IMG/VR virus record: IMGVR_UViG_3300002133_000084
Length of the DNA stretch: 28,839 nt
From: an uncultured virus (IMG/VR IMGVR_UViG_3300002133_000084)
Taxonomy: Duplodnaviria; Heunggongvirae; Uroviricota; Caudoviricetes
Strand: one strand, 5' to 3'
Of this stretch, positions 3,661 to 21,673 are shown piece by piece. A model generated the notes under the pieces. That model saw only the letters and a list, made by a program, of their open reading frames with translations, had not been told where the DNA came from and did no database searches. The translations under genes and the position numbers were made by a program. Positions within the stretch are counted from its first letter, which is position 1. Each line of letters begins with the position of its first letter.

Positions 3661-3690
3661 TTGAAAAAACACCACGCTATATCCTACTAT
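3661..3690 (+). promoter_or_regulatory. Sigma70-like promoter upstream of the RNAP beta gene
   Basis: TTGAAA-18 nt-TACTAT. Confidence 0.4.
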
Positions 3691-3742
3691 TTAAGTACGA
3701 TTATTTTCCAGTCTGTTTTTGAATTCTATACACACGAAGACT

Positions 3743-6700
3743 ATGCCAAACGCCCAGGATCCAGTTGTCCAGCACCAAATAATGAAGCAGAACGTCGCCG
3801 ACTCCATCGCGGCCCAGTTTCCCTTTGAGGGCAAGCAGAACAAGCTCGTCCTCAACAAGATCTGGACAGAAGACAAGCCCATCGATTTTGAGACAATGAA
3901 AGAGGCCCGATTAAACGATTCCACCATCGCGGCCCCTGTCTATGGAGATGTTTCCCTGTTAGATAAAAACGGCAAGGAGATGTCGCGCACGAAGAAGATG
4001 CGCCTCGCCCAAGTGCCCGTTCCAACACCCCATGGGACATTTCTGGTTAACGGCACGGAGTACCAAATCGCTCAGCAAGAACGACTTAAGCCGGGTGTCT
4101 ACGCTAGGACAACCGCTTCTGGACAGCTACAAGCACAAGTCAACTTGGCCAAGGGAATGAACTTCTCTGTGGGATTAAATCCCGAGCGCAGAAAGCTCGA
4201 AGCGAAGTTCGGCACCGCCAACGTAGGCTTATACGATCTGATGAAGATCATGGGCACTTCGGATGGGGAACTGCAGAAGGCCTGGGGCAAAGAGATCTTG
4301 GACGCCAACCAAGTCTCCAAAGAGAAAGTCAATCAGTCGGCCGCCAAGATTCACAAGGTATTATTTCGCAGGGATCACTCTAATGGAACGGCGCCGGATA
4401 CCGCTGAGGGAATGCAGAAGGAGCTGCGGGATTACTTCTCGGACACCGAGATCGATTCTAAAACTACTGAGCGAACTTTAGGCAAAGGCTTTAAGAAAGT
4501 AACCGCAGATCTATTGGGTAGGACTTCAGAGAAACTGTTAAACATTTCTCGTGGCGATGAAGAAGTCGACAATAGAAATGCGTTGATCTTTAAGAGCTTT
4601 CACGGCCCAGAAGATCAATTAAAGATAAAACTGGATCACTGGAAAACTAAAGGCCCTATTGCTAATACGGTGAAGTGGAAGGTTGATCAGAAGGACGACG
4701 TACGCAAAGTCATCAACAACAAAACCTTCGACAGGGGCGTCGAGGAGTTTTTCACATCGAGCTCACTATCCAATGCGACAGAACAAAACAACCCTCTATC
4801 GATTATTGGCGAAGCTACTAAAAGCACCGTGCTCGGAGAGGGAGGAATATCTAGCTCGCGAGCGGTGCCCGACGATGCGCGTAACCTCGAATCCACTAGC
4901 CTCGGATTCATGGATATGGTGCACACTCCTGAATCCGATCGTGTGGGTATTACTCTACACACTGGCGTTGATACTATTCGTGAAGGTAACATCCTAAAGA
5001 CGGCCGTAAGAGAAAGAGCTACTAATCGCGCGCGCCACATCGATCCCGAGGAGATGTTTGACTCTATTGTAGCCTTCCCCGATCAATTTACCGGCAACAA
5101 GGCTAAGTCTAGTGAAGTCAAGGGCATATACCAAGGACGAATGGGGACGTTCAAGGCTTCGGATGTAAAATTCATCTTGGACAGGGCGCAGGGCATGTTC
5201 GACATGTCCACTAATATGATTCCCTTTCTTGGCTCTACTCAGCCGACACGCGGGTTAACAGCTTCTAAGCAGTCTGAGCAATCGGTTTCTCTTATTGAGA
5301 GAGAAGCCCCCCTCGTACAGATTGCTACGGGCAAGGGTAAAACCTTCGAACAGGAAGTGGGTGAACAGTATTCCTGGCGTGCGCCTATTGATGGAGTCGT
5401 TGAGGAAATTAAAGATGGGATGATGGTAATAAAGAACGGGCGCAAGACGGAAAAGCTCGTCCTACCCAATAACTATCCCTTAAACCAGAAGACGTTCATC
5501 CACGCCGAGATGAAGGTGAATGTTGGGGATAAAATCAAGAAAGGCGATCTCCTAGCCGACACCAACCACACCAAGGATGGCGTGTTGGCTTTGGGAAGAA
5601 ACCTGTCTGTTGCCTATATGCCCTATAAAGGCCTCAACTTCGAAGATGCTGTCGTTATAAGCGAATCGGCCGCCAAGAAGATGACATCGGAGCATCTACA
5701 TCATAAAGATGTGGGCATCGATGAGAACTCGTCGACGGATCTCAAGAAGTTCAGAGCGCATGCGCCTGGCATAATTTCGGACAAGCACGCTGAGAACCTA
5801 ACGGCCGATGGGGTTATTAAGGTTGGGACGAGAGTGGAGCCCGGGGATGTGTTGGTTGCCCATTTACGCGAAGAAGCCATTACCCCAGAAGACAATATGA
5901 TGTCTCGCCTGATGAAGTCGCGCGCGCGTCCGTGGAAGGATCGCTCGGTGACGTGGGACAATGACTTTGGTGGGGTAGTCACAGATATAGCTAAGACTGG
6001 CTCCAAGATAAAGGTGTACGTCAAAACTGAAGAGCCCATGCGTGAGGGTGATAAGATTGTGGGCCGTCATGGTAATAAGGGTATCGTCTCTAAGATTATA
6101 CCCGATGTGGATATGATTAAAGATGAGGCGGGTAATCCGATCGATCTGATCATGGATCCACACGGCGTTCCATCCCGTATCAATGCCGGGCAGATATTAG
6201 AGACGGCCGCAGGCAAAGCGGCTCGCAAGAAGGGTGAGATCTTTGAGGTGGAAAACTTCAAGGGAGATATATCCAATTGGCTCGGAAACGTTAAGGACTA
6301 CCTGAAGGATGCCGGCGTAAAGGATAAGGAGGATGTCTTCGATCCAACTACTAATAGAACGATTCCTGGGATATTAGTGGGAGATCAATATATCACCAAG
6401 CTCAAGCATCAGGTGGAACGCAAGTTTGGCGCGCGTAATATAACAGGCCACGACATCAACTTGCAGCCTAAGGGTGGTAAGTACGGCGCCCAGAGCCTTG
6501 ATCACCTTACACTCTACACCATGCTGGCTCACGATGCGCGCGCGAACATACGAGAAATGAACTCATCTATTAAGTCGGAAAAAAACGACGAGCTATGGCT
6601 GAGATTGCAATCAGGTATGTCTCTACCCAAACCTCAGCCAACCTTCGCCTGGGATAAATTTAAAGGCATGATGACGGGCATGGGGGTAAAGGTGATTCAC

Positions 6701-7009
6701 GAAGGAAATAAGATGGGGCTCACCCCATTGACTGATAGGGATATCGAAAACATATCGCGCGGCGCCATTGAAAATCCCACTAGGGTTGTTGGCCGAGGCG
6801 ATATGCGCCCAGAAAAAGGTGGGCTATTTGATCCAGAGATAACCGGTGGGCTATCTGGCGATCGATGGAGTCATATTGATCTAGCTGAGCCTCTACCCAA
6901 TCCAGTACTGGAAAAGGGGATACTCAGTCTAACGGGGCTGAAGAAGAAGGATTTTGACTCTCTCATATCGGGCGAGCGGCATATAAATGATAAGGGAGAA
7001 TTCGTATGA
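3743..7009 (+). CDS. rpoB: Phage multi-subunit RNA polymerase: beta subunit fused to the N-terminal segment of beta-prime
   Basis: Beta motifs GTFLVNGTE, EQNNPLS, HTPES, MIPFL, ALGRNL, GLNFEDAVVISE, GDKIVGRHGNKG, GVPSRINAGQILE, YITKLKH; the C-terminal ~95 aa (PEKGGLFDPEITG...SHIDLAEP) match the start of beta-prime. ATG 3743 preferred over TTG 3719. Confidence 0.95.
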   Translation: MPNAQDPVVQHQIMKQNVADSIAAQFPFEGKQNKLVLNKIWTEDKPIDFETMKEARLNDSTIAAPVYGDVSLLDKNGKEMSRTKKMRLAQVPVPTPHGTFLVNGTEYQIAQQERLKPGVYARTTASGQLQAQVNLAKGMNFSVGLNPERRKLEAKFGTANVGLYDLMKIMGTSDGELQKAWGKEILDANQVSKEKVNQSAAKIHKVLFRRDHSNGTAPDTAEGMQKELRDYFSDTEIDSKTTERTLGKGFKKVTADLLGRTSEKLLNISRGDEEVDNRNALIFKSFHGPEDQLKIKLDHWKTKGPIANTVKWKVDQKDDVRKVINNKTFDRGVEEFFTSSSLSNATEQNNPLSIIGEATKSTVLGEGGISSSRAVPDDARNLESTSLGFMDMVHTPESDRVGITLHTGVDTIREGNILKTAVRERATNRARHIDPEEMFDSIVAFPDQFTGNKAKSSEVKGIYQGRMGTFKASDVKFILDRAQGMFDMSTNMIPFLGSTQPTRGLTASKQSEQSVSLIEREAPLVQIATGKGKTFEQEVGEQYSWRAPIDGVVEEIKDGMMVIKNGRKTEKLVLPNNYPLNQKTFIHAEMKVNVGDKIKKGDLLADTNHTKDGVLALGRNLSVAYMPYKGLNFEDAVVISESAAKKMTSEHLHHKDVGIDENSSTDLKKFRAHAPGIISDKHAENLTADGVIKVGTRVEPGDVLVAHLREEAITPEDNMMSRLMKSRARPWKDRSVTWDNDFGGVVTDIAKTGSKIKVYVKTEEPMREGDKIVGRHGNKGIVSKIIPDVDMIKDEAGNPIDLIMDPHGVPSRINAGQILETAAGKAARKKGEIFEVENFKGDISNWLGNVKDYLKDAGVKDKEDVFDPTTNRTIPGILVGDQYITKLKHQVERKFGARNITGHDINLQPKGGKYGAQSLDHLTLYTMLAHDARANIREMNSSIKSEKNDELWLRLQSGMSLPKPQPTFAWDKFKGMMTGMGVKVIHEGNKMGLTPLTDRDIENISRGAIENPTRVVGRGDMRPEKGGLFDPEITGGLSGDRWSHIDLAEPLPNPVLEKGILSLTGLKKKDFDSLISGERHINDKGEFV

Positions 7010-7206
7010 GTGCAGAAAGATTTTTTATGGGGATGCAAAAGGTGGCAGACGATCGCCTTACACTCGTGACAAGCGGCGAGGCTACGAAGAAGCTTAAAGA
7101 GTTTCACGGCGATAATATGGTTCCTTATACAGAGGAAGAGACTAGGGAATTCTGGAAGCAGTGGGCAAAAGATCAAGAAACCAAAAAGACAAAACCAACT
7201 AAATAA
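7006..7206 (+). CDS. Small hypothetical protein, candidate virion internal protein
   Basis: ATGA overlap with the RNAP stop; N-terminal RFFMGMQKVA motif; no Cys. Confidence 0.6.
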   Translation: MSAERFFMGMQKVADDRLTLVTSGEATKKLKEFHGDNMVPYTEEETREFWKQWAKDQETKKTKPTK

Positions 7207-7220
7207 TAAAATAAATCACA

Positions 7221-7916
7221 ATGAATGTGACTGATATGAGCAAAGCTATAAGATTTTATGATGGAATGTCAAAGATTGCCGGTGTTGGCTGGGATATTCA
7301 TGGGTACGCCATGCCGCACAAAGAAGAATCCTCCCTGCGGGAAAGAATTGAATTGGCGAGCCAGAAAGAGGATGAACATTTCAATAGTAAGATACTTCCA
7401 GAAGTCGGCAGATCTCCATCGAGAGATTCATTTATGGAGAGGAAGAAGATTCTCGGGCTAATACCCTGGGGATCCAAGTCTATCAATCGGGATAGATTTG
7501 CAGAGGCGATGAATGCATATAGGGAAAAGGTAAGATCGGCGCAGGATAGGCACCCGTTCGACGGTGAGGGATCAGTAGATCTACAAGATAAGATAATGGC
7601 GTCAAAAATAAGGACGCCCTACGACAGGGATTCGAATTATAAGCTCAATGCCAATGTCCAATTTATGTCCAGCGATGCTCAAGGGATAGATGACATGACA
7701 AGCGATTTCGGCTTAGGGGATAAAATAAGGGATCGCCCAATGAGCAGGGAGGATCTCATATCATTCAAAGAGCGATGGAATAGGGCAGCGGAAGCATATG
7801 CCAAGGGGAATCCAGACAGTCCGCATTTGCAATCAGGTGTACGTGGGTTCAACAACAAAATAGATAGCTTGCTGGCAAACGAAAAAGCTCAGTTTTACAG
7901 AGCTGAATGGGAATAG
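7221..7916 (+). CDS. Hypothetical protein, candidate virion internal/ejected protein
   Basis: 231-aa ORF, RFYDGMSKIA motif, no Cys. Confidence 0.7.
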   Translation: MNVTDMSKAIRFYDGMSKIAGVGWDIHGYAMPHKEESSLRERIELASQKEDEHFNSKILPEVGRSPSRDSFMERKKILGLIPWGSKSINRDRFAEAMNAYREKVRSAQDRHPFDGEGSVDLQDKIMASKIRTPYDRDSNYKLNANVQFMSSDAQGIDDMTSDFGLGDKIRDRPMSREDLISFKERWNRAAEAYAKGNPDSPHLQSGVRGFNNKIDSLLANEKAQFYRAEWE

Positions 7917-7923
7917 GATTTTT

Positions 7924-8211
7924 ATGGACACCTCAAAGAGGGATGGATTCGCTAGAGATATGGGCCCAGCTGGAGAGTCTGCCCTTATAGGCGTCGTAAA
8001 AACAAAGCCATGTCTGGTGTTGGCCTTTCCAGATCAAGATGTATTCGATCAGGATAAAGATCCAGATGAATTGGTAGAAATAAAGATCGATGTCTATAGT
8101 AAGGAGCTAGATGTGGAATCCAAAACTGGAAGACATGCCTTAGTGCGATGGCTGCAAAGCCTCATAGCCACTCTTGAAGATGATAACACTGGACTACCTG
8201 GAGGATTTTAA
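7924..8211 (+). CDS. Hypothetical protein
   Basis: 95-aa ORF tightly packed between its neighbours. Confidence 0.65.
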   Translation: MDTSKRDGFARDMGPAGESALIGVVKTKPCLVLAFPDQDVFDQDKDPDELVEIKIDVYSKELDVESKTGRHALVRWLQSLIATLEDDNTGLPGGF

Positions 8212-8787
8212 GTGGCAATAGGTGGATACTCCTATGCATCTACGCAGATCAATCTTCCGGCTGATATCACAGAGAGGATACAGGAGTGGAGTCGCGAGTT
8301 TATACCAGACTCTCATTTGTATCACAGTGATGACGATACGCATGGCCGCCGCCCGGATAGTCATGTAACCGTTCTGTATGGACTGGAATCAGATAACTCT
8401 GGCGATGTAGCGGAAAAACTTAAGGGATTCGGCCCCATATCTTTCAATTTGGGTAAGATTTCCACATTTGAATGTGAAAAGTACGATGTGGTTATCATCG
8501 AGGTGGACGGGGAGAGGTTACATAAAGCCAACAGTATTCTACGTGAGCTGCCCAATCAAAACACCTTCCCGGACTATAAGCCACACGTTACTATAGCCTA
8601 CGTAAAAAAGGGGCTTGGATCTAAGTATTTAGGCAATGAAACGTTTGCTGGCACCAAAATAGAGTCGAGTGGCATTGTGTTTTCTGGATCTGATGGCGGC
8701 AAGGTAGTCATACACATCGATCCCCCAGATGGGTTTGACATGTTCTCCTCTGCATTCTCCAGGGAATTAGAATCCTCCTTGAAATAA
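8212..8787 (+). CDS. 2H phosphoesterase (T4 gp57B / Acb1-like, 2'-5' RNA ligase superfamily)
   Basis: Two HxT motifs, SHVTVLYG and YKPHVTIAYV, about 73 aa apart; GGAGG RBS before the GTG. Confidence 0.85.
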   Translation: MAIGGYSYASTQINLPADITERIQEWSREFIPDSHLYHSDDDTHGRRPDSHVTVLYGLESDNSGDVAEKLKGFGPISFNLGKISTFECEKYDVVIIEVDGERLHKANSILRELPNQNTFPDYKPHVTIAYVKKGLGSKYLGNETFAGTKIESSGIVFSGSDGGKVVIHIDPPDGFDMFSSAFSRELESSLK

Positions 8788-8867
8788 AATATAGACAAAT
8801 AGTGCCTACTACTGTACATAGAACTGCATTTTTGTTATATTTAGGTGACATATAGGAGGGCGTTAAT

Positions 8868-9110
8868 CTGGGACAGGCACAAATATTATATGATAATTCG
8901 ACAGATTTAAACTATTCTGAGCTGGCCGAATCTTCAGAGAGTATTCGAATATGCGGAGATAGGGTATTTGTAGACGGTGGACTTGAGTTGCGGGACATCG
9001 CCTCCGCTTCTATATCTGGATCGTCCGACGCATATCTGGGGATATTAACTTTTAATAATGGCTCCCAGGTTATATGCAATATATCATCTATTGAGATTGA
9101 TATTAAATGA
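8868..9110 (+). CDS. Hypothetical 80-aa protein with CTG start (missing from the ORF track)
   Basis: Open frame 8868-9110; AGGAGG RBS 8 nt before the CTG; in-frame TAG at 8853 excludes an upstream start; stop overlaps the next ATG (ATGA). Confidence 0.55.
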   Translation: MGQAQILYDNSTDLNYSELAESSESIRICGDRVFVDGGLELRDIASASISGSSDAYLGILTFNNGSQVICNISSIEIDIK

Positions 9111-9391
9111 CTGAAAATATTAGCCTTACAGCACTGATGGAGGGGGATGACATTATTCCCTACTACTCTGATTTACTCGGAGAAGAAGTTATGTTAGCTG
9201 GCAATAAAGCTGACATACCCGATGATGGTAAGGTTTATTATCGAGTCTCCGAATTGCAACAATTAAAGGGAATGGATCCAGATCATGTGAAAAAAATACA
9301 CATGGTAAAGAGAGTATTTTCTGGATCCATCGCACTATTTGCATCATGTATTCCCATGTACTATACTGTTGGTGCATGCTTTAATGTTTAA
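9107..9391 (+). CDS. Hypothetical phage protein
   Basis: S.LLGEEV....Y..SEL..L....IH.VKR.F.G pattern resembles small phage proteins; translationally coupled. Confidence 0.65.
   Translation: MTENISLTALMEGDDIIPYYSDLLGEEVMLAGNKADIPDDGKVYYRVSELQQLKGMDPDHVKKIHMVKRVFSGSIALFASCIPMYYTVGACFNV
9339..9367 (+). promoter_or_regulatory. Sigma70-like promoter, ATGTAC-TATA class
   Basis: TTGCAT-17 nt-TATACT with ATGTAC immediately 5' of the -10. Confidence 0.6.
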
Positions 9392-9405
9392 TGTCTCTTT
9401 TGGTT
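9390..9405 (+). promoter_or_regulatory. Operator-like 16-mer AATGTCTCTTTTGGTT (copy 1)
   Basis: Identical copies at 11978-11993 (-) and 27857-27872 (+), each next to a promoter. Confidence 0.65.
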
Positions 9406-10113
9406 CACATGAATATAATTGGTATAGGACATAAGGCGCGGCGCGGTAAAGATGCCGCCGCTATATATCTGAGCAAAAAATATGAACTGGCACATCTATC
9501 GTTTGCTGCTAGCGTATACGATGAGTGCAGATCTGTTTTTGTTCACTATAAAACATATTTGCCGGATATAGAGATGCTGTCCATCTTCTGCCCATCGGTT
9601 GACTTGGCCCCCAATGTATATGTCAGAGGGGGACATACCTCTATTGAGGGTAATATTCACAATCTGTTAGATTTAGTCTTGGCGTGGATAACTGATGTGG
9701 GCGAGTTGACTCATTTTTCTGGCGGCTGCGAGCAGTGGGATTACCGCGGTATGAAGCAGAAGGACAGCAGGCTATTGCAGTGGTATGGCAATGATTACCG
9801 CAGGGAATTGTTTGGGCACGACTACTGGATTAATAAGGTGGACGCCCAGATCAATGAATTGAGTGGGGCTGTAAATGGTGTGGTTCTAGCCGACATGCGC
9901 TACAAGAACGAGGCTCGCTACATCAAATACAAGGGTGGAACGTGCTGGAAGGTGCATAGAGATGAGCCACTGGAGGACACAGGCCGCGATCCCAACCACA
10001 TCTCTGAGATAGATTTGGATAATTGGAACTTTGATTATGTAATACACAATGACAAAGATCTGATCAACCTATATGTGCGAGCAGATGAGTGCTATTTGAA
10101 GGCGACTAAATGA
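9391..10113 (+). CDS. Deoxynucleoside monophosphate kinase (T4 gp1 / T5 dnk-like)
   Basis: IIGIGHKARRGKD P-loop, LSFA, RLLQWYGNDYRR, VLADMRYKNE, HISE..LD; the true start may be ATG 9409. Confidence 0.88.
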   Translation: MSLLVHMNIIGIGHKARRGKDAAAIYLSKKYELAHLSFAASVYDECRSVFVHYKTYLPDIEMLSIFCPSVDLAPNVYVRGGHTSIEGNIHNLLDLVLAWITDVGELTHFSGGCEQWDYRGMKQKDSRLLQWYGNDYRRELFGHDYWINKVDAQINELSGAVNGVVLADMRYKNEARYIKYKGGTCWKVHRDEPLEDTGRDPNHISEIDLDNWNFDYVIHNDKDLINLYVRADECYLKATK

Positions 10114-10667
10114 GTTCCACCTACTCACAGCTCGCCAGTATGATGTCTGGTAAAAAAGTAAAGGCGGCGGCCAAGCCGACAAGGGTTGGAAAGAAGGTGG
10201 ATGTCACAGTGGGAGAGGATGTATTTCCACTCTTTTTAGAGATTCCGTTAGCGCCTATCGTCAAAAAGAATAGTCGCCCAATTTTTATAAATAAAACAAC
10301 GGGCAAGCCATTTATAGGTAAATCTGACGAACTGAGGGATTGGGAGAAGGATGCAGAGGATCACCTTAGATCTCAGTTGGCTAAAAAGGGGCTGGCAGAT
10401 CTAAAGTTAGATATACCACTTCTGTGCACCATGTTCATTTATAGGGCGCAGTCTTCCTCTAGTCCGGGGGATCTATCGAACTACGTTGAAGCCCCTCAGG
10501 ATGCAATGGAAAAGGCTGGGGTAATGGATAACGATCGCCGCATTCGTAGCCTGGATGGTACTCGATTATTGCAGGACAAGCGCCCGCGCATAGAAATACT
10601 ACTATGGCCCCTGGAGAAATGTCCATACGCAATTGACGTGGAGGAGCATTTCGATGGAGCTCGGTGA
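10110..10667 (+). CDS. rusA: RusA-family Holliday junction resolvase
   Basis: KKNS motif; GDLSNYVEAPQDAMEKAGVMDNDRRI matches the RusA DxDN...D.L...G...DD pattern; PRIEI at the C-terminus. Confidence 0.85.
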   Translation: MSSTYSQLASMMSGKKVKAAAKPTRVGKKVDVTVGEDVFPLFLEIPLAPIVKKNSRPIFINKTTGKPFIGKSDELRDWEKDAEDHLRSQLAKKGLADLKLDIPLLCTMFIYRAQSSSSPGDLSNYVEAPQDAMEKAGVMDNDRRIRSLDGTRLLQDKRPRIEILLWPLEKCPYAIDVEEHFDGAR

Positions 10668-10854
10668 TCATCACGATTTGGCAAATCGATTATTAGAGAG
10701 AAGATTGCGATTATTAGAGAGAAGATTGAGGAAAAAGGCCGCCAGTAATTCAGTTCCTGAGTGTAATAAAGTTGAGCTACCCATATCGGCAGAATTTACC
10801 GTCGACGGAGGAGAACCACAAACAGCTCCCATTATAAGGGCAGAAGCAAAGTGA
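10654..10854 (+). CDS. Small hypothetical protein
   Basis: ATG 10654 after GGAGGAG; contains a duplicated RLLERRL; stop overlaps the next GTG. Confidence 0.5.
   Translation: MELGDHHDLANRLLERRLRLLERRLRKKAASNSVPECNKVELPISAEFTVDGGEPQTAPIIRAEAK
10687..10728 (+). repeat. Exact 21-bp tandem duplication
   Basis: CGATTATTAGAGAGAAGATTG x2. Confidence 0.9.
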
Positions 10855-11402
10855 ACGATATGTTCGACGAATCATTTGAATATCAATTGAAAATTGCAGC
10901 CTCTTTTGGCAAGGGAATATTAGCCGGGGCCGATATTACCGGCGAGATGCCGCTAGAAATGGGCGTTGATGCGCGCCGCTCAGATAATGGCGATATGAAG
11001 AATATTGCAATTGGCGGTGGAATACTGGGAGGGCTTGTAACTGGGCCAGCTACCCCCGCCTTGGTTCATGGAACCAATAAAATGAATAGGGCGGCCAATA
11101 GTCTTCCAAAAGGTACCAGCATGTCAAAAAGGCTTAGTGTTCGTGCGAAGGCCTTTGCCAATGGAACCGTGGATGGATTTAAGGATGCATACAAGGCTCC
11201 ATTTAAAAAGGGCATTGGCAAGGGTGGCAGAATAGAAGCCCTGGTTCCATTTATACTTGGCGCGGCAAGTCAGGCTGCCATGTCTGCCAATCAATATCGC
11301 CTAGGGAGAAAGATGCGCAATAAAGTAGAGTCTGATGTTGCAGCTAAGGGGTTTTCTGGGTGGTGGAGACGACAGATGGAAGCTGTTCCAAAAATAGATT
11401 AG
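10851..11402 (+). CDS. Gly/Ala-rich basic protein with glycine-zipper-like segment, candidate ejected virion protein
   Basis: SFEYQLKIAA N-terminal motif; IAIGGGILGGLVTG; no Cys. Confidence 0.7.
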   Translation: MNDMFDESFEYQLKIAASFGKGILAGADITGEMPLEMGVDARRSDNGDMKNIAIGGGILGGLVTGPATPALVHGTNKMNRAANSLPKGTSMSKRLSVRAKAFANGTVDGFKDAYKAPFKKGIGKGGRIEALVPFILGAASQAAMSANQYRLGRKMRNKVESDVAAKGFSGWWRRQMEAVPKID

Positions 11403-11411
11403 GGGGGCACA

Positions 11412-11897
11412 ATGATTCCTTGGCGGTATTCGATTTCTAGGGGTGAAGGGCATTGCGATCCTATTTCCCTGGAGAAAACAGACGACTATTTCCCCAGATT
11501 TTATGAGTGGATGACATTCTTCTCATCGTGTGAGTTTGTGAAAATGATACCCGGCATGTATGCCAGATGTATGGTTGTGTCGGATGATATGTGTGTGAAA
11601 TTTGATCCATCTGGAGAGATAACACGTCCAGAAATAAAATTTGGCGAATATTTTGTATATCAGGCCGTGGTTGCCCTGTCTTCTCCTGATGACGATTGGC
11701 AGAAGAGGATGCATAGCATGGGATACCATTATATGATGGACGGGGGCGATGTAAATAAGACGGCTGCCATAGTTATGCTGGAGGGCGATCTAAACTGCGA
11801 GGTTCTGGGAGACACGGTAGTGGTGTGTGGCCCGCGCGCGGAGCAGGATAGAAGTAAATACGATAAGATATCTAAGAAAAGTATCGCCCCAGAGTAA
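11412..11897 (+). CDS. Hypothetical protein
   Basis: 161-aa ORF with G-rich RBS. Confidence 0.65.
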   Translation: MIPWRYSISRGEGHCDPISLEKTDDYFPRFYEWMTFFSSCEFVKMIPGMYARCMVVSDDMCVKFDPSGEITRPEIKFGEYFVYQAVVALSSPDDDWQKRMHSMGYHYMMDGGDVNKTAAIVMLEGDLNCEVLGDTVVVCGPRAEQDRSKYDKISKKSIAPE

Positions 11898-11914
11898 AAA
11901 AGTGCTCAATCATG

Positions 11915-11943
11915 TTGCAATCAGTTCACATATGTACTATATA
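11915..11943 (+). promoter_or_regulatory. Sigma70-like promoter, ATGTAC-TATA class
   Basis: TTGCAA-17 nt-TATATA with ATGTAC directly upstream of the -10. Confidence 0.6.
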
Positions 11944-11972
11944 TGTAGGTACTGGTTTGCTTTTACCTTTTA

Positions 11973-12629
11973 ATGTTAACCAAAAGAGACATTATGAAGC
12001 CAGGTGCTCGTAGAACATACAATGATGACGATTTTACTAAGGGTGGATTCGGCGAGCGGCTTTTTGAGCTCGATCTCGAGCGACAAAACGCCAACTACCT
12101 CCCTTTCCATATGTACACACAAGACGGTGCTCCTTTAGCCATTATAAATGGAAAAAAATACATAGCACCCGACTTCTTTCTATTTCGATCGGATAAGAAA
12201 GAGATTGCGCGCTGGGTTGAAGTAAAAACCAAGATGTCTGCAGACTACACGCGCAAAGAAAAGAGATACGATCATGGTGTGGACGCATACAACGTAGAGC
12301 AGTACATGCAGGTGGCGCGCGCATCGGGCAAAGAGGTGTACTTAGCCGTATTCGAACTTAAGCCCACCCTAACCCTCCTTATTCGCAAGCTGTCTACCCT
12401 GATGAATCTAGAGGGGACATTGGCGCCGCGCCGCGGATACACGATTAGGCGGGATGACGAGGATCAAATCAAGACTCCTATGATCTACTTCCCAAGGGAT
12501 GGCTTTAAGGAAGTAGATCCACCTAATCCAGGGGTATTAAATGAGAATGACTACGACAACAAAGAAGTAAAGCGGATTATCATAGAAGGCCGCAGCACAC
12601 TAAAACAGGGAGAGTTGTTTAATGCCTAA
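11973..12629 (+). CDS. PD-(D/E)XK superfamily nuclease
   Basis: G..GE helix, IAPDFFLF, WVEVKTK; the start may be ATG 11994. Confidence 0.75.
   Translation: MLTKRDIMKPGARRTYNDDDFTKGGFGERLFELDLERQNANYLPFHMYTQDGAPLAIINGKKYIAPDFFLFRSDKKEIARWVEVKTKMSADYTRKEKRYDHGVDAYNVEQYMQVARASGKEVYLAVFELKPTLTLLIRKLSTLMNLEGTLAPRRGYTIRRDDEDQIKTPMIYFPRDGFKEVDPPNPGVLNENDYDNKEVKRIIIEGRSTLKQGELFNA
11978..11993 (-). promoter_or_regulatory. Operator-like 16-mer (copy 2, inverted)
   Basis: AACCAAAAGAGACATT is the reverse complement of AATGTCTCTTTTGGTT. Confidence 0.65.
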
Positions 12630-13107
12630 AATTGGAAGCGCCGTAAAGTGGGGCGGAATAGATGCCCTTGTCATTGGTGAAAATGACGACGGCACCGTAG
12701 ATGTATCAGCAGTAGCAAAAGTCCTAAACGATAGTTGCGAAACGCACATTACGATCGTGGGGCGCACCCAGGACTTGAAGGACGGCCCGAAGGAGATGCA
12801 GGTAATCGATCAGAGAAAGGGTGCTCCGATTGAAAAAACGGAAGAAGAGCCCGCGGCCGAAGAGGCTAAATTGGATACAGAGGTGGAAGAAGCAGGGGAG
12901 CCTGAGGGCGATAGTACATCTTCCGAGTCAGACGGAGCGCAAGTTGTCGTCGGGGGAGAAGATGACGAAGCTGGAGCGGACACACCTGAAGAGGGTGAAA
13001 CTGCGAGCGAGGTTGGCTCCGCTAAGCCATTGGAGCCCATGGAAGACACGCTCAACGACAATGTCGAACCGGTAAGTAAGAGCGGACGCCGGAAGAAGAA
13101 TAAGTAA
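12622..13107 (+). CDS. Hypothetical protein, small beta domain plus acidic disordered tail
   Basis: E/D-rich low-complexity C-terminal half ending in a basic tip; GGGGAG RBS. Confidence 0.7.
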   Translation: MPKIGSAVKWGGIDALVIGENDDGTVDVSAVAKVLNDSCETHITIVGRTQDLKDGPKEMQVIDQRKGAPIEKTEEEPAAEEAKLDTEVEEAGEPEGDSTSSESDGAQVVVGGEDDEAGADTPEEGETASEVGSAKPLEPMEDTLNDNVEPVSKSGRRKKNK

Positions 13108-13535
13108 TGATTCCCGAAGAATACCCCCTCTTATCGGTGGGGAGTAAAAATGACATCGACACCATTCTGGGTGAGCGCAAAAAAGTTATTGCGCGCCAGA
13201 TGGATCACCTAATTGTCATGTGGGACAAGGTGAAGATTCATATGCTGGCAAATGAGCAGTCTGGACAACTAGTTTACAGCTCAGTCGATAGTGTGGGATT
13301 TATTGCACTCCTTGAGGTTGACTTAACATTCAAGGTTGGCAAGCTACTTTGGAAGACTGATAAGGATGGCTTCATTGAGCCCGGAGAGCACATTAACATA
13401 TTCTTCAAATTGATACGGAATCAGCAAGACGAGCATTTCTTGGGATGGCTGGCCGATCTTTACTCCCAGATAGCGATAAACGCCCTGATGGGGAATAATC
13501 AGGTAAACGCTCGATTTGTATTCGAGGATAGATAA
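13107..13535 (+). CDS. Hypothetical protein
   Basis: 142-aa ORF coupled by a TAATG overlap. Confidence 0.7.
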   Translation: MIPEEYPLLSVGSKNDIDTILGERKKVIARQMDHLIVMWDKVKIHMLANEQSGQLVYSSVDSVGFIALLEVDLTFKVGKLLWKTDKDGFIEPGEHINIFFKLIRNQQDEHFLGWLADLYSQIAINALMGNNQVNARFVFEDR

Positions 13536-13910
13536 GGCGGGAACCGAATCTCTCGCCCAACTGAACGCCGTGATTCGGAGTGGGGAATCAGCCAGTATTC
13601 CCCGGGTGGCCAACATAATAGAGAAGCACAATTCTGGCCTAGTTACACAAAGTTGTTGCATCGTCGGATAGCACTGGAAGTGCACCACACACGGGCCGAC
13701 GCTCAAGTATGCGAAGTATCGTTAGCGGTTCTGGGAGACTGATCTAGGAGCTGGGGTTAGAAGGGCATATGAGCCCACCCCTTTGGGATATAAACACTTG
13801 GTAACAGGTGTACCATTGCTGAGCTGGATACCAATCGCGGGGGAACTGAAAGTGTGGATGCGGGTAGCTGGGCCCGGGGAAAGCCCAGACAACTGTGTGT
13901 AACTAGAATA
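13536..13910 (+). ncRNA. Candidate large structured non-coding RNA (unassigned)
   Basis: No credible CDS; 17/18-bp closing helix 13639-13656/13889-13906; internal hairpins incl. ACACTTG-GTAA-CAGGTGT (GNRA loop) and CTGGGC/GCCCAG; directly precedes tRNA-fMet. Confidence 0.55.
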
Positions 13911-13915
13911 ATTTT

Positions 13916-13990
13916 CGCGGGGTGGCGCAAAGGTAGCGCGTCGGGCTCATAACCCGAAGGTTGGCGGTTCAAGTCCGCTCCCCGCTTCCA
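13916..13990 (+). tRNA. tRNA-fMet (initiator, anticodon CAT)
   Basis: CGCGGGG acceptor with unpaired C1, anticodon arm TCGGG-CTCATAA-CCCGA with three G-C pairs, GGTTCAAGTCC T-arm, encoded CCA. Confidence 0.95.
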
Positions 13991-13993
13991 TAT

Positions 13994-14157
13994 GCCAACA
14001 GCTTACGAGCACCGCACAGATAAAGCGGGTTGGCGGAGGGGCACTCTCCTCTCATTAAACAATCGCTCGGGACAGAGAACTCCGATGGCAAGGCCATTGA
14101 AATATGAGGTTAAAATCCTCTCGGCAAGTGGCGGTATGCGAAATCCCGAAGTGCCCT
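13994..14157 (+). ncRNA. Structured inter-tRNA element (unassigned)
   Basis: GCCAAC/GTTGGC; GGGCAC/GTGCCC; TCGGGA/TCCCGA; internal GAGG-TTAAAAT-CCTC T-arm-like hairpin. Confidence 0.4.
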
Positions 14158-14162
14158 TTAAT

Positions 14163-14237
14163 GCCGGTATAGCTGAGTTGATTTAGCACTCCCCTTGTAA
14201 GGGAGATACGGGGGTTTGAATCCCTCTACCGGCTCCA
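14163..14237 (+). tRNA. tRNA-Thr (anticodon TGT)
   Basis: GCCGGTA/TACCGGC acceptor, CTCCC-CTTGTAA-GGGAG anticodon arm, encoded CCA; T-loop is TTTGAAT. Confidence 0.9.
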
Positions 14238-14243
14238 AGATTG

Positions 14244-14545
14244 ATGCGTCCTCTTAGTGGTTCTGCAGTCGGGGTTTCATCGCCTCGTTAGTACTCCTAC
14301 CACGATCAGGTGGCCACTGCAGGCTTCCCGGTTATCAGGGGCACATCATACCGGAAGGCCCTGTGCAACTATGTCGTCGAGGGGTCAACGACTGTGCAAG
14401 GCCTTCCGGACACAAATTGCCGAACAGATATGGCAACCAACCATCGGAAAGAGTCGGCCATAGGCGCAGCGAGTGAAGGGAATAAGCGATTGGGCCGGTA
14501 CCCTGATTGCCCTGCAAACACACATGTAGCTCGCCCGCCTTGATA
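14244..14545 (+). ncRNA. Candidate structured non-coding RNA (unassigned)
   Basis: CTGCAGT/ACTGCAG; perfect CCGGAAGGCC (14351-60)/GGCCTTCCGG (14400-09); long-range ATCAGGG/CCCTGAT; no credible CDS. Confidence 0.5.
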
Positions 14546-14614
14546 ACTAACCCACCCCAAATAGGGTGGAGACAGAAGAACTGATATCACCTACTCTAAA
14601 AGGATATAGCTATC

Positions 14615-15241
14615 ATGGCTTGGGGTGATAAACATATGCGCTATCAGCGCATGGAAGAAGTATTGGGAGTTGACGATCTGGCCAGTGGCTTGATCACTCC
14701 CGCAGTAAACGAAGGTGGCGCTGCCACATTCGCCGCAGGTGCTTTGTTGGTTGATTCGCTCGCCGGCAATGTCATCACCAAAGAGATTGGCACCTTGGGT
14801 ATTCAGGGCCTTTCGTTTGAAGCTGCGGGCGCGCACTTGCGCTTCGCATGGGATGTCCCCAGTTACGTCGACACTCAGAGAAATCTCGGTATCAAAGTAC
14901 GCTGGGCGACGAATTCGGTTACGGATGCCGACGACATTCACTGGGTTGCACTGCATGGCATGATCGCCGACGGCGAAGCATTGGCTGCTCCGGCAACCGT
15001 GCTCGACACGGCTATCGCCGCTGAGACGGTGGGTGCGGGCGCTGCATTGGCTCGCCACACAAGCCCCCGTGGTGTCATTTTAGCTTCGAAGATCAGCGCT
15101 GGCGATACGGCCATCTTTGATCTCGAGCTCGATGTCTGCGATGCAGACGTTGGTGCAACGGAAAGCGTCTGGCTGACAGGCGTAGTCTTGGACTTCGTGC
15201 CCCGTTTTATGAAGGGTGACGCGCGCTCCACGTTAGTGTAA
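14615..15241 (+). CDS. Probable virion structural protein (beta-rich, decoration-like)
   Basis: Ala/Val/Thr-rich with beta-strand pattern (LRFAWDVP, IKVRW, VWLTGVVLDF); AGGA RBS; followed by a strong terminator. Confidence 0.6.
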   Translation: MAWGDKHMRYQRMEEVLGVDDLASGLITPAVNEGGAATFAAGALLVDSLAGNVITKEIGTLGIQGLSFEAAGAHLRFAWDVPSYVDTQRNLGIKVRWATNSVTDADDIHWVALHGMIADGEALAAPATVLDTAIAAETVGAGAALARHTSPRGVILASKISAGDTAIFDLELDVCDADVGATESVWLTGVVLDFVPRFMKGDARSTLV

Positions 15242-15244
15242 AAG

Positions 15245-15287
15245 AATAGCCCGGGCGCTAATGTGGCGTCCGGGCTATTTCCTATTT
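15245..15287 (+). terminator. Rho-independent terminator
   Basis: AATAGCCCGGGCGCTA-ATG-TGGCGTCCGGGCTATT then TCCTATTT. Confidence 0.7.
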
Positions 15288-15336
15288 AAGAAAACAACAA
15301 CGATAGAAGCCGTAACCGGCGGAACGTATACATATA

Positions 15337-18156
15337 ATGGCCGAAGATCTAAAAACTGGTGGCGCAGCCATCCAACACCTCCTATCCAAAATCGACACCA
15401 ACAGTCGTATAGGGGAGATCGAGGGCGAATTAAAAACTGCCCGCGGCACTAATCGTACTAAGCTTAATCGTGAGCTAGGATACCTAAAGGCCCTCAAGGA
15501 ATCTGGCGACACAGCAGACAAAGCATACATCATTAATAAGGTTCCCGTACTTCCCCCTTCTATGCGCCCCGTCTATACAAATGAGAAGGGGCAGCTTGTC
15601 GTATCAGACGTCAATGAGCTCTATCAGGGCATGGGCGCCGTTAATGAGCAGCTTACCAGCTTAAAGGACTTACCCGATTCAGAAAAGAAGGCCCTTAGAA
15701 AAGATTTGTATGATGGACTCAAGGCTATTCAAGGCCTGGGCGATCCCATATCCCACAAACAATCCCTCAAGGGTATCTTCCGCCAAATTGCCGGCACTAA
15801 TAGTCCGAAGGGTGGCTACTTTCAGCACCGGTTGACGCGCCGCCGGCAGAATGTATCCGGCCGATCGACAATCACCCTGGGTGAAGATTTAGATATTGAT
15901 CAGGTAGGACTGCCGGAAGAAATGGCGTGGACGCTGTTTCGTGATTTTACCGTAAAAGAACTGGTGTCTAATGGACACACCAAGGCGGATGCGCTCGAGC
16001 AAATAAAAGATCGCACATCCACAGCAGAGAAGGCGCTGCAGCACGCAATGAATCAGCGCCCAGTATGGCTTAATAGATCACCATCCCTGCATCGCCATTC
16101 TATCATGGCGTTCAATCCCGTATTAACACCGGGGAGAGATATAAAGATTAATCCACTCGTCGTAAAAGGCTTCAATGCCGACTTCGACGGCGATAGTATG
16201 TCTGTCCATGTACCCGTCACAAGAGAGGCGGTGGATGAGGCTAAAGTGCGAAAGCCAACGGATATCTTATTCTCGGCTGGTACGGAAAAACTAATGCTCG
16301 TGCCAGGCCAAGCTTCCGCCTTGGGCCTCTACCTAATGTCCAACACAGACGGAGAGGTAGTGGGTGAATTCAAAAATGAGAAAGAGGCGCTTGCAGAGAG
16401 CAGGGCTAATACCATACGCGATGAAGACACGATTCTCGTTAATGGCAAGAAGACTACTGCGGGACGCATTAAAATTGATGAGCAAATCCCAGAAGGATTC
16501 CGGGAATACGGAACATTAAACAAAAAGAATCTGGAAAAGATGCTTTCTGATATTGCCGTGTCCCGCCCAAAGGATTATGGTGGCATCGTTGGCAAGCTGC
16601 GCAAGATGGGCGATGAGTATGCCACTAATAGGGGATTTTCCATTGGACTAGACGATTTGGATCCCCTAACTGGAATGCGCGATCAGATGTTATCTGATGC
16701 AGACAAAAAGATCCAAAAAGGTTCGATTGGGAAGACAGAGAAAGAAAAGGATGCCCTATTCTCTGAGGTATATGGGGAAGTGGCATCCAAGATGGAGGAT
16801 GAGATTGGCAAGACACTAGCCAACTCAGATAACTCTGTTGGGCACATGCTCATCTCTGGATCCAGAGGATCCGCTGCGCAGGCGCGGCAAATCTTCGCTG
16901 CTCCCCTACTTGCCCAGGATGCATCAGGTAGGCCTATCCCCATTCCTATTAAGAACTCTTATATGGAGGGATTAGATACACAGGAATACTTCGCCGCCGG
17001 CTATGGCGCGCGCGCTGGTGCTGTGGGTAGATCACATCAAACTGCTCTACCTGGAGCCTTGGCAAAAGAGGTTCTAGCCTCTGTTGTGGATTCTGTAGTT
17101 ACAGAACACGAGTCCGAAGACATGCCATCTCTAAAGATGAGCACCAAGCGACAGGATGATGATTTAGTAGATCGATTCCTGGCCGCCGATGTCAGCGGCA
17201 AGGGAGGCAGGAAGGTTGCCAAGAAGGGAGATCTGCTCACCTCCGCAAAGTTATCTAGGCTGCGGGAGGAGGGCGTATCTGATGTCGACGTCTACACTCC
17301 ATTAAATGCTGAATTACCTGGAGGCGGCATACCCGCCAAGGCGTTTGGACTAGATGAGAATGGCAAGATTCCTGACATAGGCACCAACCTTGGATTACTG
17401 TCTGGCCACTCCATGACGGAACCGATCAGCCAAATGACATTGGACGCATTTCACTCTGGCGCTACCGGTGGAACGAAGGGGCGCGTATCCAAGTTCGATC
17501 GCATCCAGCAGTTATTCCAATTGCCCAAAGCTCTTCCCGGGAAAGCTACCCTAGCAAAGAAGGATGGGCGGATTGGTGCAGTAAGGGATTCTCCTGCTGG
17601 CGGCTGGGATGTAGAGATAGGCGGAGATACTCACTATGTGCCCAAGGGCAATCCACTCAAGATAAAAGAGGGTGATGCAGTAAGGGCTGGCGAAGCTATA
17701 TCAGATGGCCCAATACAGCCACATGAACTCTTGGAGATCAAAGGGCTGCCGGCCGTACAAGAATACCTTACGGACGAAATCCAAAAAGAAACAGGCGTCA
17801 AGCGTCGCTGGGTGGAAACAGTGGTGGGCGCTATGACGAGTATGTCCGAAGTAGATGATCCGGGCGATTCTGAATTTTACCCCGGAGACTCAGTGCCCAA
17901 TTGGGCTATCCGCAAGCACAACAAAGATCCACAAACAACCAACATACAAGCCAAGCCCATCTTCAAGGGCGTCAATATGCTTCCACTAGTAAAGGCGGGA
18001 GACAACTGGCTGGCAGGCATGGATTTCAGGCGCCTAAAGGACGTCATATCGGAAGGAGCCCTAAATAACAAGTGGAGCGAGCTGAGTAGTGTGAACCCCA
18101 TACCAGCAGTTGCATACGGAGCCGATTTTGGCCTCGGAGAAAAAGGGAGGTACTAA
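15337..18156 (+). CDS. rpoC: Phage multi-subunit RNA polymerase, beta-prime subunit lacking its N-terminal segment
   Basis: Catalytic FNADFDGD (NADFDGD at 16174-16194), VPVLPPSMRP, SGRSTI, LNRSPSLHR, SGSRGS, YGARAG bridge helix, EPISQMTLDAFHSG trigger loop. Confidence 0.96.
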   Translation: MAEDLKTGGAAIQHLLSKIDTNSRIGEIEGELKTARGTNRTKLNRELGYLKALKESGDTADKAYIINKVPVLPPSMRPVYTNEKGQLVVSDVNELYQGMGAVNEQLTSLKDLPDSEKKALRKDLYDGLKAIQGLGDPISHKQSLKGIFRQIAGTNSPKGGYFQHRLTRRRQNVSGRSTITLGEDLDIDQVGLPEEMAWTLFRDFTVKELVSNGHTKADALEQIKDRTSTAEKALQHAMNQRPVWLNRSPSLHRHSIMAFNPVLTPGRDIKINPLVVKGFNADFDGDSMSVHVPVTREAVDEAKVRKPTDILFSAGTEKLMLVPGQASALGLYLMSNTDGEVVGEFKNEKEALAESRANTIRDEDTILVNGKKTTAGRIKIDEQIPEGFREYGTLNKKNLEKMLSDIAVSRPKDYGGIVGKLRKMGDEYATNRGFSIGLDDLDPLTGMRDQMLSDADKKIQKGSIGKTEKEKDALFSEVYGEVASKMEDEIGKTLANSDNSVGHMLISGSRGSAAQARQIFAAPLLAQDASGRPIPIPIKNSYMEGLDTQEYFAAGYGARAGAVGRSHQTALPGALAKEVLASVVDSVVTEHESEDMPSLKMSTKRQDDDLVDRFLAADVSGKGGRKVAKKGDLLTSAKLSRLREEGVSDVDVYTPLNAELPGGGIPAKAFGLDENGKIPDIGTNLGLLSGHSMTEPISQMTLDAFHSGATGGTKGRVSKFDRIQQLFQLPKALPGKATLAKKDGRIGAVRDSPAGGWDVEIGGDTHYVPKGNPLKIKEGDAVRAGEAISDGPIQPHELLEIKGLPAVQEYLTDEIQKETGVKRRWVETVVGAMTSMSEVDDPGDSEFYPGDSVPNWAIRKHNKDPQTTNIQAKPIFKGVNMLPLVKAGDNWLAGMDFRRLKDVISEGALNNKWSELSSVNPIPAVAYGADFGLGEKGRY

Positions 18157-18157
18157 G

Positions 18158-19066
18158 ATGGATGAAGTATCTATTTACATGCATGATCTAGGGCGCATGC
18201 CCGTCATGTCCTCCAAGGACGAGACGACAGCATTTAGTGCTCTTCGCGAAGGCGATGATTCAATGCGCGAAAAGATAGCGCGCGCGAATCTCAGGTTTGT
18301 TGTCAGCGTGGCGGGGGACTATGCATCAGACTCCTCGTCATTTATGGATCTAGTGCAAGATGGAAACATGGGCCTACTCAAGGCCATTGATAAATTCGAT
18401 CACAATAAAGGGTTCAAGTTTATCACCTATGCCGTGTGGTGGATCCGGAGAAGCATCTTGGATGCCATCCAGAGAGACAGGACGATACGCCTGCCAAAAC
18501 ACGCATATGAGGATATGCGCAGGTGCTCCATCGCCCTCAACGAATACAATAGAGACATACTCAGGGCGGCCAGGGAATCGGTTGAATTATCCGATCAGCG
18601 CGTAGATAATGTGCGCCAGCTATCCAACAATATTATGTCCATCGATTACAATAATGTGGATGACGAGGCGTCCCAATCCAATACCTGGCTTCGCGATGAC
18701 AGCGCCGCCAGAGACATGGAGTATGGGATAGAGATGGATGAGCTTAGGGACAAATTTACAGAGTGCTTTAATCATCTAGATAAGCGCGCATCCTATATCA
18801 TCAAGTCGTATTATGGGCTATGCGGGCATGACGCTTGCACCCTGGAGGCTATTGGCGAGAGGATGAATTTGACGCGCGAGCGCGTTCGGCAAATTAAAAA
18901 GATTGCCCTGCGTCGACTCAAATTGATGATACCTGAGTCGTATCACATCAACTCAGATGAGGCCGAGGTGGACGTCGATGAGCTATTAAAAATCGTCCAA
19001 ATAAATGCCCGTCGCATGGAAAATTACACTGAGGGCTGGGAAGATAAGTCAGCCATAAATGCATAA
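18158..19066 (+). CDS. RNA polymerase sigma factor, RpoD/RpoS-like (sigma70 group 1/2, no region 1.1)
   Basis: Region 1.2 YMHDLG, ANLRFVVSVA, DLVQDGNMGLLKAIDKFD..KGFKFITYAVWWIR, region 4 TLEAIG.RMNLTRERVRQI; ATG 18158 with GGGAGG RBS. Confidence 0.93.
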   Translation: MDEVSIYMHDLGRMPVMSSKDETTAFSALREGDDSMREKIARANLRFVVSVAGDYASDSSSFMDLVQDGNMGLLKAIDKFDHNKGFKFITYAVWWIRRSILDAIQRDRTIRLPKHAYEDMRRCSIALNEYNRDILRAARESVELSDQRVDNVRQLSNNIMSIDYNNVDDEASQSNTWLRDDSAARDMEYGIEMDELRDKFTECFNHLDKRASYIIKSYYGLCGHDACTLEAIGERMNLTRERVRQIKKIALRRLKLMIPESYHINSDEAEVDVDELLKIVQINARRMENYTEGWEDKSAINA

Positions 19067-21466: not shown

Positions 21467-21673
21467 ATGTCTTGGGAGCAACTCATTCAACTGGATCGCA
21501 AGGAGATCCATTCTCATTACCTGAAGGGGGGATGTGCCGATGCTGGCGCCGGCGCTCGAATCGGGATTTCCACAGGGGCTTTCAGGTTATTGCGATGGCT
21601 CAATCGGATTCCCGAGCGAGTCTTTACTGGAATACCTGCCGCTCGTAGACACGATAGTACACGGCGACTTTAA
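21467..21673 (+). CDS. Possible small helix-turn-helix protein overlapping the sigma gene
   Basis: Starts right after the previous stop with GAGAGG RBS; D......IGIS...F...R....IP is HTH-like; 140-bp overlap with the sigma ORF. Confidence 0.4.
   Translation: MSWEQLIQLDRKEIHSHYLKGGCADAGAGARIGISTGAFRLLRWLNRIPERVFTGIPAARRHDSTRRL

Follow-up and report, generated by a model that had tools for sequence, protein, structure and literature searches.

Why would a bacterial-type, multisubunit RNA polymerase (RNAP) be rid of every cysteine and of both its zinc sites? The question is raised by a stretch of 28,839 nucleotides from an uncultured virus of the Caudoviricetes (IMG/VR record IMGVR_UViG_3300002133_000084), referred to below, at its full length, as the window. 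Two of its open reading frames (ORFs) are the catalytic core of a bacterial-type RNAP of the mReC (RNAP-encoding Caudovirales), and neither the beta nor the beta-prime chain, 2027 residues together, contains a cysteine. The virus family and the detection of its RNAP in virions of the relative Arash are already published; the literature searched contained no report that a bacterial-type RNAP has been purged of cysteines and zinc sites, or that such a purge evolved repeatedly. We regard it as probable that the loss in the window RNAP is best explained by the enzyme being virion cargo that is ejected with the DNA. The features on which the argument turns are the following.

3743..7009, + strand: RNAP beta and the N-terminal part of beta-prime; 1088 amino acids (aa) from ATG 3743, 0 Cys, Pfam Rpb2_6 at 9.9e-62
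6713..6967, + strand: segment homologous to bacterial beta-prime residues 10–129, zinc ribbon absent (hhalign)
15337..18156, + strand: remainder of beta-prime, beginning at about E. coli residue 177; 939 aa without Cys, Pfam Rpb1 domains 2, 5 and 4
16174..16194, + strand: catalytic NADFDGD loop, intact, beta-prime residues 280–286
17113..17343, + strand: former second zinc site, with ligand positions now S593, A658, P666 and A669

The identity of the two chains was determined by homology. The beta frame is open from TTG 3719 (3719–7009, 1096 aa), with ATG 3743 as the likely start; the chain matches PDB beta chains at E 7e-80, is 99% identical to another 1088-aa protein (P0123), and its C-terminal ~100 residues are the start of beta-prime. 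The second chain matches PDB beta-prime at E 1.7e-99 and Pfam Rpb1_2 at 5.8e-30, its residue 4 falling opposite residue 453 of the Thermus chain and residue 177 of the E. coli chain. The Rpb2/Rpb1 architecture and the homology to solved bacterial RNAPs are those of a bacterial-type enzyme; the two beta-prime zinc sites that also characterize this type are missing from the window. To judge from its sequence, the window RNAP looks functional, because the NADFDGD loop is intact and A281, D282, F283, D284, G285, and D286 are invariant across 27 aligned sequences. Pfam detects no alpha-like domain among the window ORFs, and the alpha domain PF01193 is found in 0/5 near-complete related genomes versus 14/14 control genomes; host alpha may serve as the assembly partner.

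An earlier note on this DNA, made from the letters alone, had claimed that the N-terminal zinc ribbon of beta-prime is deleted and that every ligand of the second zinc site is replaced. Both claims were borne out. For the first site, we compared hhalign profiles of 76 family tails and of the N-termini of 96 bacterial beta-prime chains. Residues 999–1083 of the window beta chain (P0001) align to bacterial beta-prime residues 10–129 with a probability of 96.8% and E 2.7e-10, and the single gap in this alignment, 32 columns between GGL and SGD near 6851–6856, coincides exactly with the bacterial CxC...CxxC ribbon. The homology of the tail to beta-prime rests on profile comparison, since a phmmer search of PDB with the single 131-aa tail found no beta-prime match. 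At the second site, S593, A658, P666, and A669 occupy columns that are Cys in 12 of the 27 aligned sequences (3 bacterial, 9 viral). The strings quoted in the earlier note, GLFDPEITGGLSGDRWSHIDL, TEHESED, and TPLNAELPGGGIPAKAFG, all occur in the translations. The second site is present in every cellular RNAP compared, and the loss of both sites is a departure from every cellular enzyme compared in this analysis.

It could be argued that the two genes are what remains of a split polymerase that is inactive and decaying, the loss of zinc being a loss of function. This would accommodate an ancestral single gene found in two parts, with 8.3 kb between them and both zinc sites gone, but it is a most improbable account: neither frame is interrupted or truncated, the family keeps NADFDGD and dozens of further positions unchanged, the same split is retained in homologues down to ~45–50% identity (protein lengths 1088–1105 and 929–987 aa), and the short element CTATTTAAG precedes both halves.

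The cysteine count itself was confirmed by translation for all 1088 and 939 residues. The remaining 27 window ORFs hold 52 Cys in 5818 aa (0.89%), and at this background the probability of 0 Cys in 2027 aa is 1.2e-8; the earlier note had put it at ~1e-9 for an assumed 1%. Cysteine is present, as had been stated, in the adjacent sigma factor (4), the dNMP kinase (5), the kinase-like ATPase (6), and the AAA ATPase (4). Composition alone could still be invoked, on the argument that Cys is rare in this phage and that most beta-prime Cys are zinc ligands, so that zero is unremarkable once the sites are lost. Eight of the 27 other window ORFs, several of them small, also lack Cys (~6 expected from their lengths, on a rough estimate), and the mean for 59 bacterial beta chains is only 0.59% (7.6 Cys). 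The family data contradict this explanation, to which we give almost no credence. A count of Cys in homologues, which the earlier note had called for, found none in 14/14 of the closest beta-prime chains (P0003–P0016, 43–99% identity) and none in 14/14 of the closest beta chains (P0123–P0136), despite divergence to ~40% identity. The next nine beta-prime homologues (33–38% identity) have exactly the four zinc-site Cys and at most one other. Among bacterial chains, the 96 beta-prime sequences average 1.04% Cys with a minimum of 4, the 59 beta sequences likewise have a minimum of 4, and no compared bacterial chain of either kind lies below that number.

A wider sample was obtained by a profile scan of IMG/VR, which returned 502 relatives, 71 loci being kept; L068, L072, and L073 form a separate Cys-rich group (31–33 Cys) and were excluded from the family counts. 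In the composition count over 71 viral loci (68 mReC-type and 3 without a called RNAP ORF), RNAP has 410 Cys in 143,629 aa (0.285%, inteins included), whereas the ORFs adjoining RNAP have 3464 Cys in 292,331 aa (1.185%). Aligned non-ligand positions are without Cys in 66 of 83 beta-prime rows, and the second zinc site of these rows is CCCC in 57, partial in 2, and absent in 24. Fused chains of ordinary length (n = 44) have exactly 4 Cys in 23 cases, 5 in eight, none in five, and 13 in one; among over-long RNAP chains, inteins or LAGLIDADG endonucleases that hold the extra Cys were detected in 6 of the 8 checked. A FastTree phylogeny with 83 viral rows and 3 bacterial outgroup rows separates the viral from the bacterial side with support 100; the window falls on the viral side, inside a 13-row Cys-free clade that also has support 100. 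The second zinc site was lost 7 times on this tree, at least 5 of the losses being forced by well-supported branches, and the replacement residues differ from loss to loss. The loss of Cys is a family trait, not chance, and the purge is specific to RNAP and a few neighbouring enzymes. Halophily or a general bias of the proteome was considered as a cause and rejected: the neighbouring proteins have normal Cys.

The grouping of the window RNAP with a viral clade apart from cellular homologues is that of the mReC RNAP, which likewise comprises bacterial-type beta and beta-prime (Weinheimer and Aylward 2020, PMC7481178). A term search of that text gave zero occurrences of cysteine, zinc, sigma, or virion. 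The window clade differs from most mReC in that both zinc sites are lost, whereas most keep the second, and in that the split falls near beta-prime residue 175 and the two parts are 8.3 kb apart, whereas most have one fused chain. Megablast of window positions 3000–20000 against phage records returned no match, a viral scan with a single window protein returned two distant loci only, a metagenome scan returned only relatives at ≤37% identity, and, with P0011 as seed, a scan of genomes yielded bacterial rpoC at 25–30% identity and nothing else, so that no prophage copy was found.

Is such an enzyme carried in the particle? The detection of RNAP in virions comes from Salmonella phage Arash (OQ632216), whose Gp206 matches P0001 at E 4e-171, with 33% identity across 97% of its length. 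Arash matches the family profiles for portal (E 4.7e-146), beta (1.4e-269), and helicase (9.6e-129), and its portal, RNAP, and helicase genes are syntenic with those of the family. In the published Arash proteome, Gp206 is the most detected protein of sucrose-gradient particles, with 3516 spectra, and the particles also contain beta-prime Gp216 (1210 spectra), helicase Gp217 (1148), and sigma Gp10 (467) (PMC10585845). The particle table does not contain the second sigma Gp196 (3 Cys) or TerL (13 Cys), and the text of the paper has 0 occurrences of the word cysteine (PMC10585845). By our count, Gp206 has 1 Cys in 1525 aa, Gp216 has 4 in 606 aa, and Gp217 and Gp10 have 0. Like the window RNAP, that of Arash is in two chains with other genes between them and is nearly Cys-free; unlike it, Arash keeps the four Cys of the second site, is split elsewhere, and has the portal gene directly upstream.

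Phage RNAPs that are packaged in the virion and ejected include those of N4, phiKZ (the virion RNAP), crAss-like phages, and P23-45. Among ejected RNAPs, Cys suppression has been described for the N4 group only, and the window RNAP displays it in full. N4 gp50 and the ejection proteins of Schitoviridae are Cys-free (0.00075% versus 0.865% in proteomes; PMC11445570). The published rationale for the N4 group is passage through the periplasm; the Cys-free N4 virion RNAP, linked to crossing of the envelope, to which the earlier note had pointed is in print (PMC11445570, PMC2784036). The N4 system resembles our reading of the window in its conserved Cys suppression and in a polymerase that is carried in the particle and ejected (PMC11445570, PMC2784036). 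It differs in that gp50, which comes from a podovirus, is a single-subunit, T7-like enzyme of ~3500 aa and is not homologous to beta or beta-prime, and in that packaging is known for N4, whereas for the window it is a prediction. The Cys-free RNAPs that we found in the literature were all N4-like single-subunit enzymes; a Cys-free multisubunit phage RNAP was not reported in the texts searched, which for the papers on mReC, Arash, and YerA41 were the main texts.

The position of the gene in relatives also bears on packaging. In most of them, a single strand carries the portal, RNAP, a gp5-like spike, two proteins without known function, and the large terminase. The portal was called from an AF2 model (pLDDT 68) with Foldseek matches to the lambda and HK97 portals (E 1e-8 to 3e-7), TerL from a match to phrog_675 at 3e-61, and the spike from weak matches of the cluster c2 representative to the T4 gp5 C-terminal domain and baseplate hub. 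An RNAP gene inside the morphogenesis module fits a late, packaged product. Cysteine absence is shared with other proteins of these phages: 41 of 337 RNAP neighbours of at least 300 aa have 0 Cys versus 2.3 expected, and in a complete 181-kb relative genome 14 of 65 proteins of at least 250 aa are Cys-free versus 0.91 expected. The Cys-free class includes an SNF2 helicase, a LigD-like ligase, a divergent sigma, and multidomain polyvalent proteins such as C39 peptidase+InPase and C92 peptidase+GNAT+SET. Polyvalent proteins are described as injected with DNA (Iyer et al., PMC7824862). Cysteine is retained by TerL (1.97%), the portal (0.99%, with a conserved CxxC..CxxC), the tail sheath (19 Cys), and the spike, so the purge marks a subset of proteins and not virion proteins generally.

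From these data, we infer packaging in this phage, ejection, unfolded passage, and a division of labour among sigma factors, in the following sequence. RNAP would be a late product that is loaded into the particle and leaves it together with the DNA. In an unfolded state it would thread the tail channel and cross the oxidising envelope; once in the cytoplasm, it would regain its fold and, independently of the host polymerase, begin transcription of the earliest phage genes. On such a route, thiols and zinc-dependent folds would be liabilities, an argument already proposed in print for N4 and its ejected virion RNAP. RNAP would probably be accompanied by a Cys-free sigma like Arash Gp10, a kind of sigma that the window lacks; the Cys-containing sigmas, encoded next to beta-prime, would be synthesized in the infected cell and would direct the one core to the later genes. 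A single RNAP set, with one beta-prime locus, is found in 5/5 near-complete related genomes. The adjacent window sigma matches Arash Gp196 at E 4e-15 and the virion-detected Gp10 at 0.004 (blastp); that it contains Cys is expected under this model, because it resembles Gp196 and not Gp10.

Several observations weigh against packaging of the window RNAP. Its genes lie among nucleotide-metabolism genes and tRNAs, with a divergent primase/ATPase block upstream, and not in a structural module; no portal homologue is found in the window with the family profiles, and both window sigma factors contain Cys. Virion detection comes from the relative Arash, outside the clade of the window (43–99% identity). 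Of the 272 annotated Arash proteins, 116 were recovered from the preparation, ribonucleotide reductases and RNA ligases among them, and the authors themselves raise the alternative that abundant proteins were carried over (PMC10585845). Some family members exceed the usual Cys number, with 13 in L047 and 8 in L053, L056, and L028; no intein is detectable by Pfam in L047, the one chain of these on which Pfam was run. The phiKZ virion RNAP, a multisubunit enzyme proven to be injected, has 16 Cys in 2614 aa (0.61%) compared with 33 in 2850 aa (1.16%) for the non-virion paralogue; injection would lower Cys, but a full purge is not demanded of an injected enzyme, because the phiKZ virion RNAP retains those 16. 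RNAPs of YerA41-type phages have 31–33 Cys, and they were reported in a virion preparation together with many replication enzymes (PMC7354516).

The same observations supply an alternative, in which the window encodes an ordinary intracellular RNAP that is never packaged and whose Cys and zinc were removed by another pressure on the enzyme, such as oxidative or thiol-reactive stress, zinc independence, or escape from a factor targeting the zinc domains of host beta-prime. The location of the genes among those for replication and nucleotide metabolism, the Cys kept by the phiKZ and YerA41-type RNAPs although packaged or virion-associated, and an Arash proteome broad enough for the detection to be carry-over all speak for it. 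A cytoplasmic pressure should, however, also strike TerL, primase, helicases, and DNA polymerase, which keep 1–2% Cys or more, while the purge is shared by proteins expected or reported in the particle (SNF2 helicase, Gp10-type sigma, polyvalent proteins). The Arash virion table contains the Cys-free sigma and not the Cys-bearing one (PMC10585845), and the portal-to-spike/terminase position in most relatives fits a late, packaged product. We consider the intracellular alternative unlikely, though it deserves to be taken seriously. The proposal of the earlier note that RNAP is packaged and injected is in part supported, by the family-wide purge, by the portal, spike, and terminase context of relatives, and by the Arash particles; it is limited by the particle detection coming from a relative, by the context in the window, and by the Cys of phiKZ.

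The phiKZ comparison extends beyond cysteine. In phiKZ, annotated structural proteins have 0.52% Cys and larger non-structural proteins 0.87%. phiKZ and AR9 resemble the window in having phage relatives of beta and beta-prime in several chains, and one of their RNAP sets is injected with the DNA (PMC8287921, PMC7598289, PMC7824862). Neither phiKZ-type phages nor mReC have an alpha homologue (PF01193 in 0/5 mReC genomes). phiKZ has two RNAP sets, virion and non-virion, whereas mReC have one (5/5), and the phiKZ-type RNAPs are highly divergent and use no sigma, whereas the window encodes sigma-70-family factors. YerA41 was also considered as a source of supporting proteomics and set aside, its RNAPs being a distant, Cys-rich group (24–26% identity) and its virion list including many replication enzymes.

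If the packaging reading holds more broadly, the absence of Cys would mark the whole ejected proteome, and these phages would inject a complete, host-independent, bacterial-type transcription kit, an extension that we put forward tentatively and rate below the packaging of RNAP itself. The components of the kit would be an alpha-less and zinc-free core in one or two chains, a dedicated Cys-free sigma, an SNF2 helicase, and enzymes for repair and effector functions; each would have lost its thiols so that it could be passed unfolded through the tail and the oxidising envelope and refold unaided. Ejected cargo would then be predictable from sequence alone in uncultured phages. The beta-prime zinc sites, otherwise universal, would also for the first time be seen to be dispensable, with at least 5 separate losses. 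The conserved sequences suggest that neither zinc nor thiols are needed for a bacterial-type RNAP to fold and function, and the repeated loss points to strong, unusual selection on the enzyme. If ejection is the force, the rule of no cysteine in ejected proteins of N4-like podoviruses would extend to the multisubunit RNAP of large contractile-tailed phages. The same reading suggests a single-polymerase strategy, with a packaged sigma for early genes and newly made sigmas for later ones, and a naturally Cys-free, zinc-free, and alpha-less RNAP core could be a minimal model enzyme.

What, then, of the split? The earlier note had suggested that division into two ~1000-aa chains could aid ejection, a suggestion that the family does not sustain. 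A fused beta-beta-prime chain of ~2050 aa with the same purge is far commoner, occurring in 52 of 68 loci with RNAP ORFs, whereas 5 (the window included) are clearly split and 11 are incomplete. Split sites vary: Vibrio phage D181 has three pieces, Arash is split near beta-prime profile position 370, and the window at about residue 175. Such sites often adjoin homing endonucleases or inteins in the family, and traffic of selfish elements together with gene insertion appears to be the better explanation. The family RNAP gene is a hotspot for inteins and LAGLIDADG homing endonucleases (L046, L060, L054, L039, L017, L057; P0137, P0139); the longest RNAP ORF reaches 3591 aa with at least 2 insertions, and nearly all Cys of the long ORFs are in the inserted parts. 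In D181 (L074, OZ196140; 13766–23626), the "hypothetical proteins" 0261, 0263, 0267, and 0271 are the portal and three RNAP pieces, missed by the annotation of the record; homing endonucleases lie between the RNAP pieces, which have 6 Cys in 2129 aa. The Vibrio phage preprint (10.1101/2024.12.24.630238) does not cover D181.

Fusion of rpoB and rpoC also occurs in some bacteria (Helicobacter, Wolbachia), and the bacterial fusions retain zinc sites and cysteines. They have beta and beta-prime in one polypeptide, as do the 52 viral loci; in the window, the beta chain still bears the first part of beta-prime, and the chain has been re-split at a new site.

The remaining features of the window concern the surroundings of the two RNAP genes.

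3687..3695, + strand: first copy of CTATTTAAG, 48 nt upstream of the beta start codon
7006..15336, + strand: 8.3-kb block between the two RNAP genes (Pfam, PHROGs, ARAGORN)
8212–8787: 2H phosphoesterase/Acb1-like protein, an anti-CBASS Pfam match (Pfam/PHROGs)
9391–10113: dNMP kinase, 5 Cys (Pfam/PHROGs)
10110–10667: RusA (Pfam/PHROGs)
13916–13990 and 14163–14237: tRNA-Met and tRNA-Thr (ARAGORN)
15282..15290, + strand: second copy of CTATTTAAG, 47 nt upstream of the beta-prime start
18110..19066, + strand: sigma-70-family factor of 318 aa, overlapping the end of beta-prime; 4 Cys, Pfam Sigma70_r2 at 7.7e-21 and r4 at 3.2e-11
21534..22055, + strand: second, ECF-like sigma of 173 aa; 1 Cys, Pfam Sigma70_r2 at 1.3e-10 and r4 at 7.4e-7
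24876..26357, + strand: gp5-like spike homologue of 493 aa; 2 Cys, family cluster c2 profile at E 1.7e-71

A search of both strands of the window finds exactly two perfect copies of the 9-mer CTATTTAAG, against ~0.2 expected by chance on both strands; the second stands just behind a GC-rich hairpin at the end of the preceding gene. The 9-mer may act as a promoter element common to the two RNAP halves, which it would co-regulate. A longer motif, CCTAYTATTTAAG, showed no enrichment in the window with mismatches allowed, and a scan for sigma-70-type promoters gave 19 sites versus 25.3 expected. The block between the RNAP genes also includes ORFs without assigned function, and ~1 kb around the tRNAs (13536–14614) is poor in ORFs. 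A primase zinc-ribbon protein and the kinase-like ATPase are encoded on the opposite strand upstream of beta, and the AAA ATPase gene lies downstream of the RNAP and sigma genes. RusA, the dNMP kinase, the primase zinc ribbon, and the spike homologue are phage-type genes; no capsid (T4-type PF07068), portal, or terminase was found among the ORFs of the window.

Further observations were made in relatives. The portal cluster c0 (alignment A4, for example L007:2883-4910) has an invariant CxxC...CxxC (C135, C138, C160, and C163 in the first sequence), which looks like a zinc ribbon within a portal. For the conserved 670-aa neighbour c1, PDB gave no sequence match and Foldseek no match at E 0.001 or better. 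An RVT_1 protein (8.4e-19; L009:5736-6665, minus strand, cluster c17) is encoded just upstream of the RNAP gene in six family loci. Two multidomain proteins encoded directly downstream of RNAP are candidate injected effectors: one of 1710 aa with 2 Cys (L029:12927-18059), combining a papain-like C92/NlpC peptidase with GNAT, SET, and Gly-zipper regions, and one of 758 aa with 1 Cys (L008:17485-19761), combining a C39 peptidase with InPase. The second most detected virion protein of Arash, Gp4 (L187 2528–5821), has 0 Cys in 1097 aa, and the 181-kb relative G005 encodes a 1372-aa Cys-free protein at 174259–178377, just before the tail lysin; both may be further ejected proteins.

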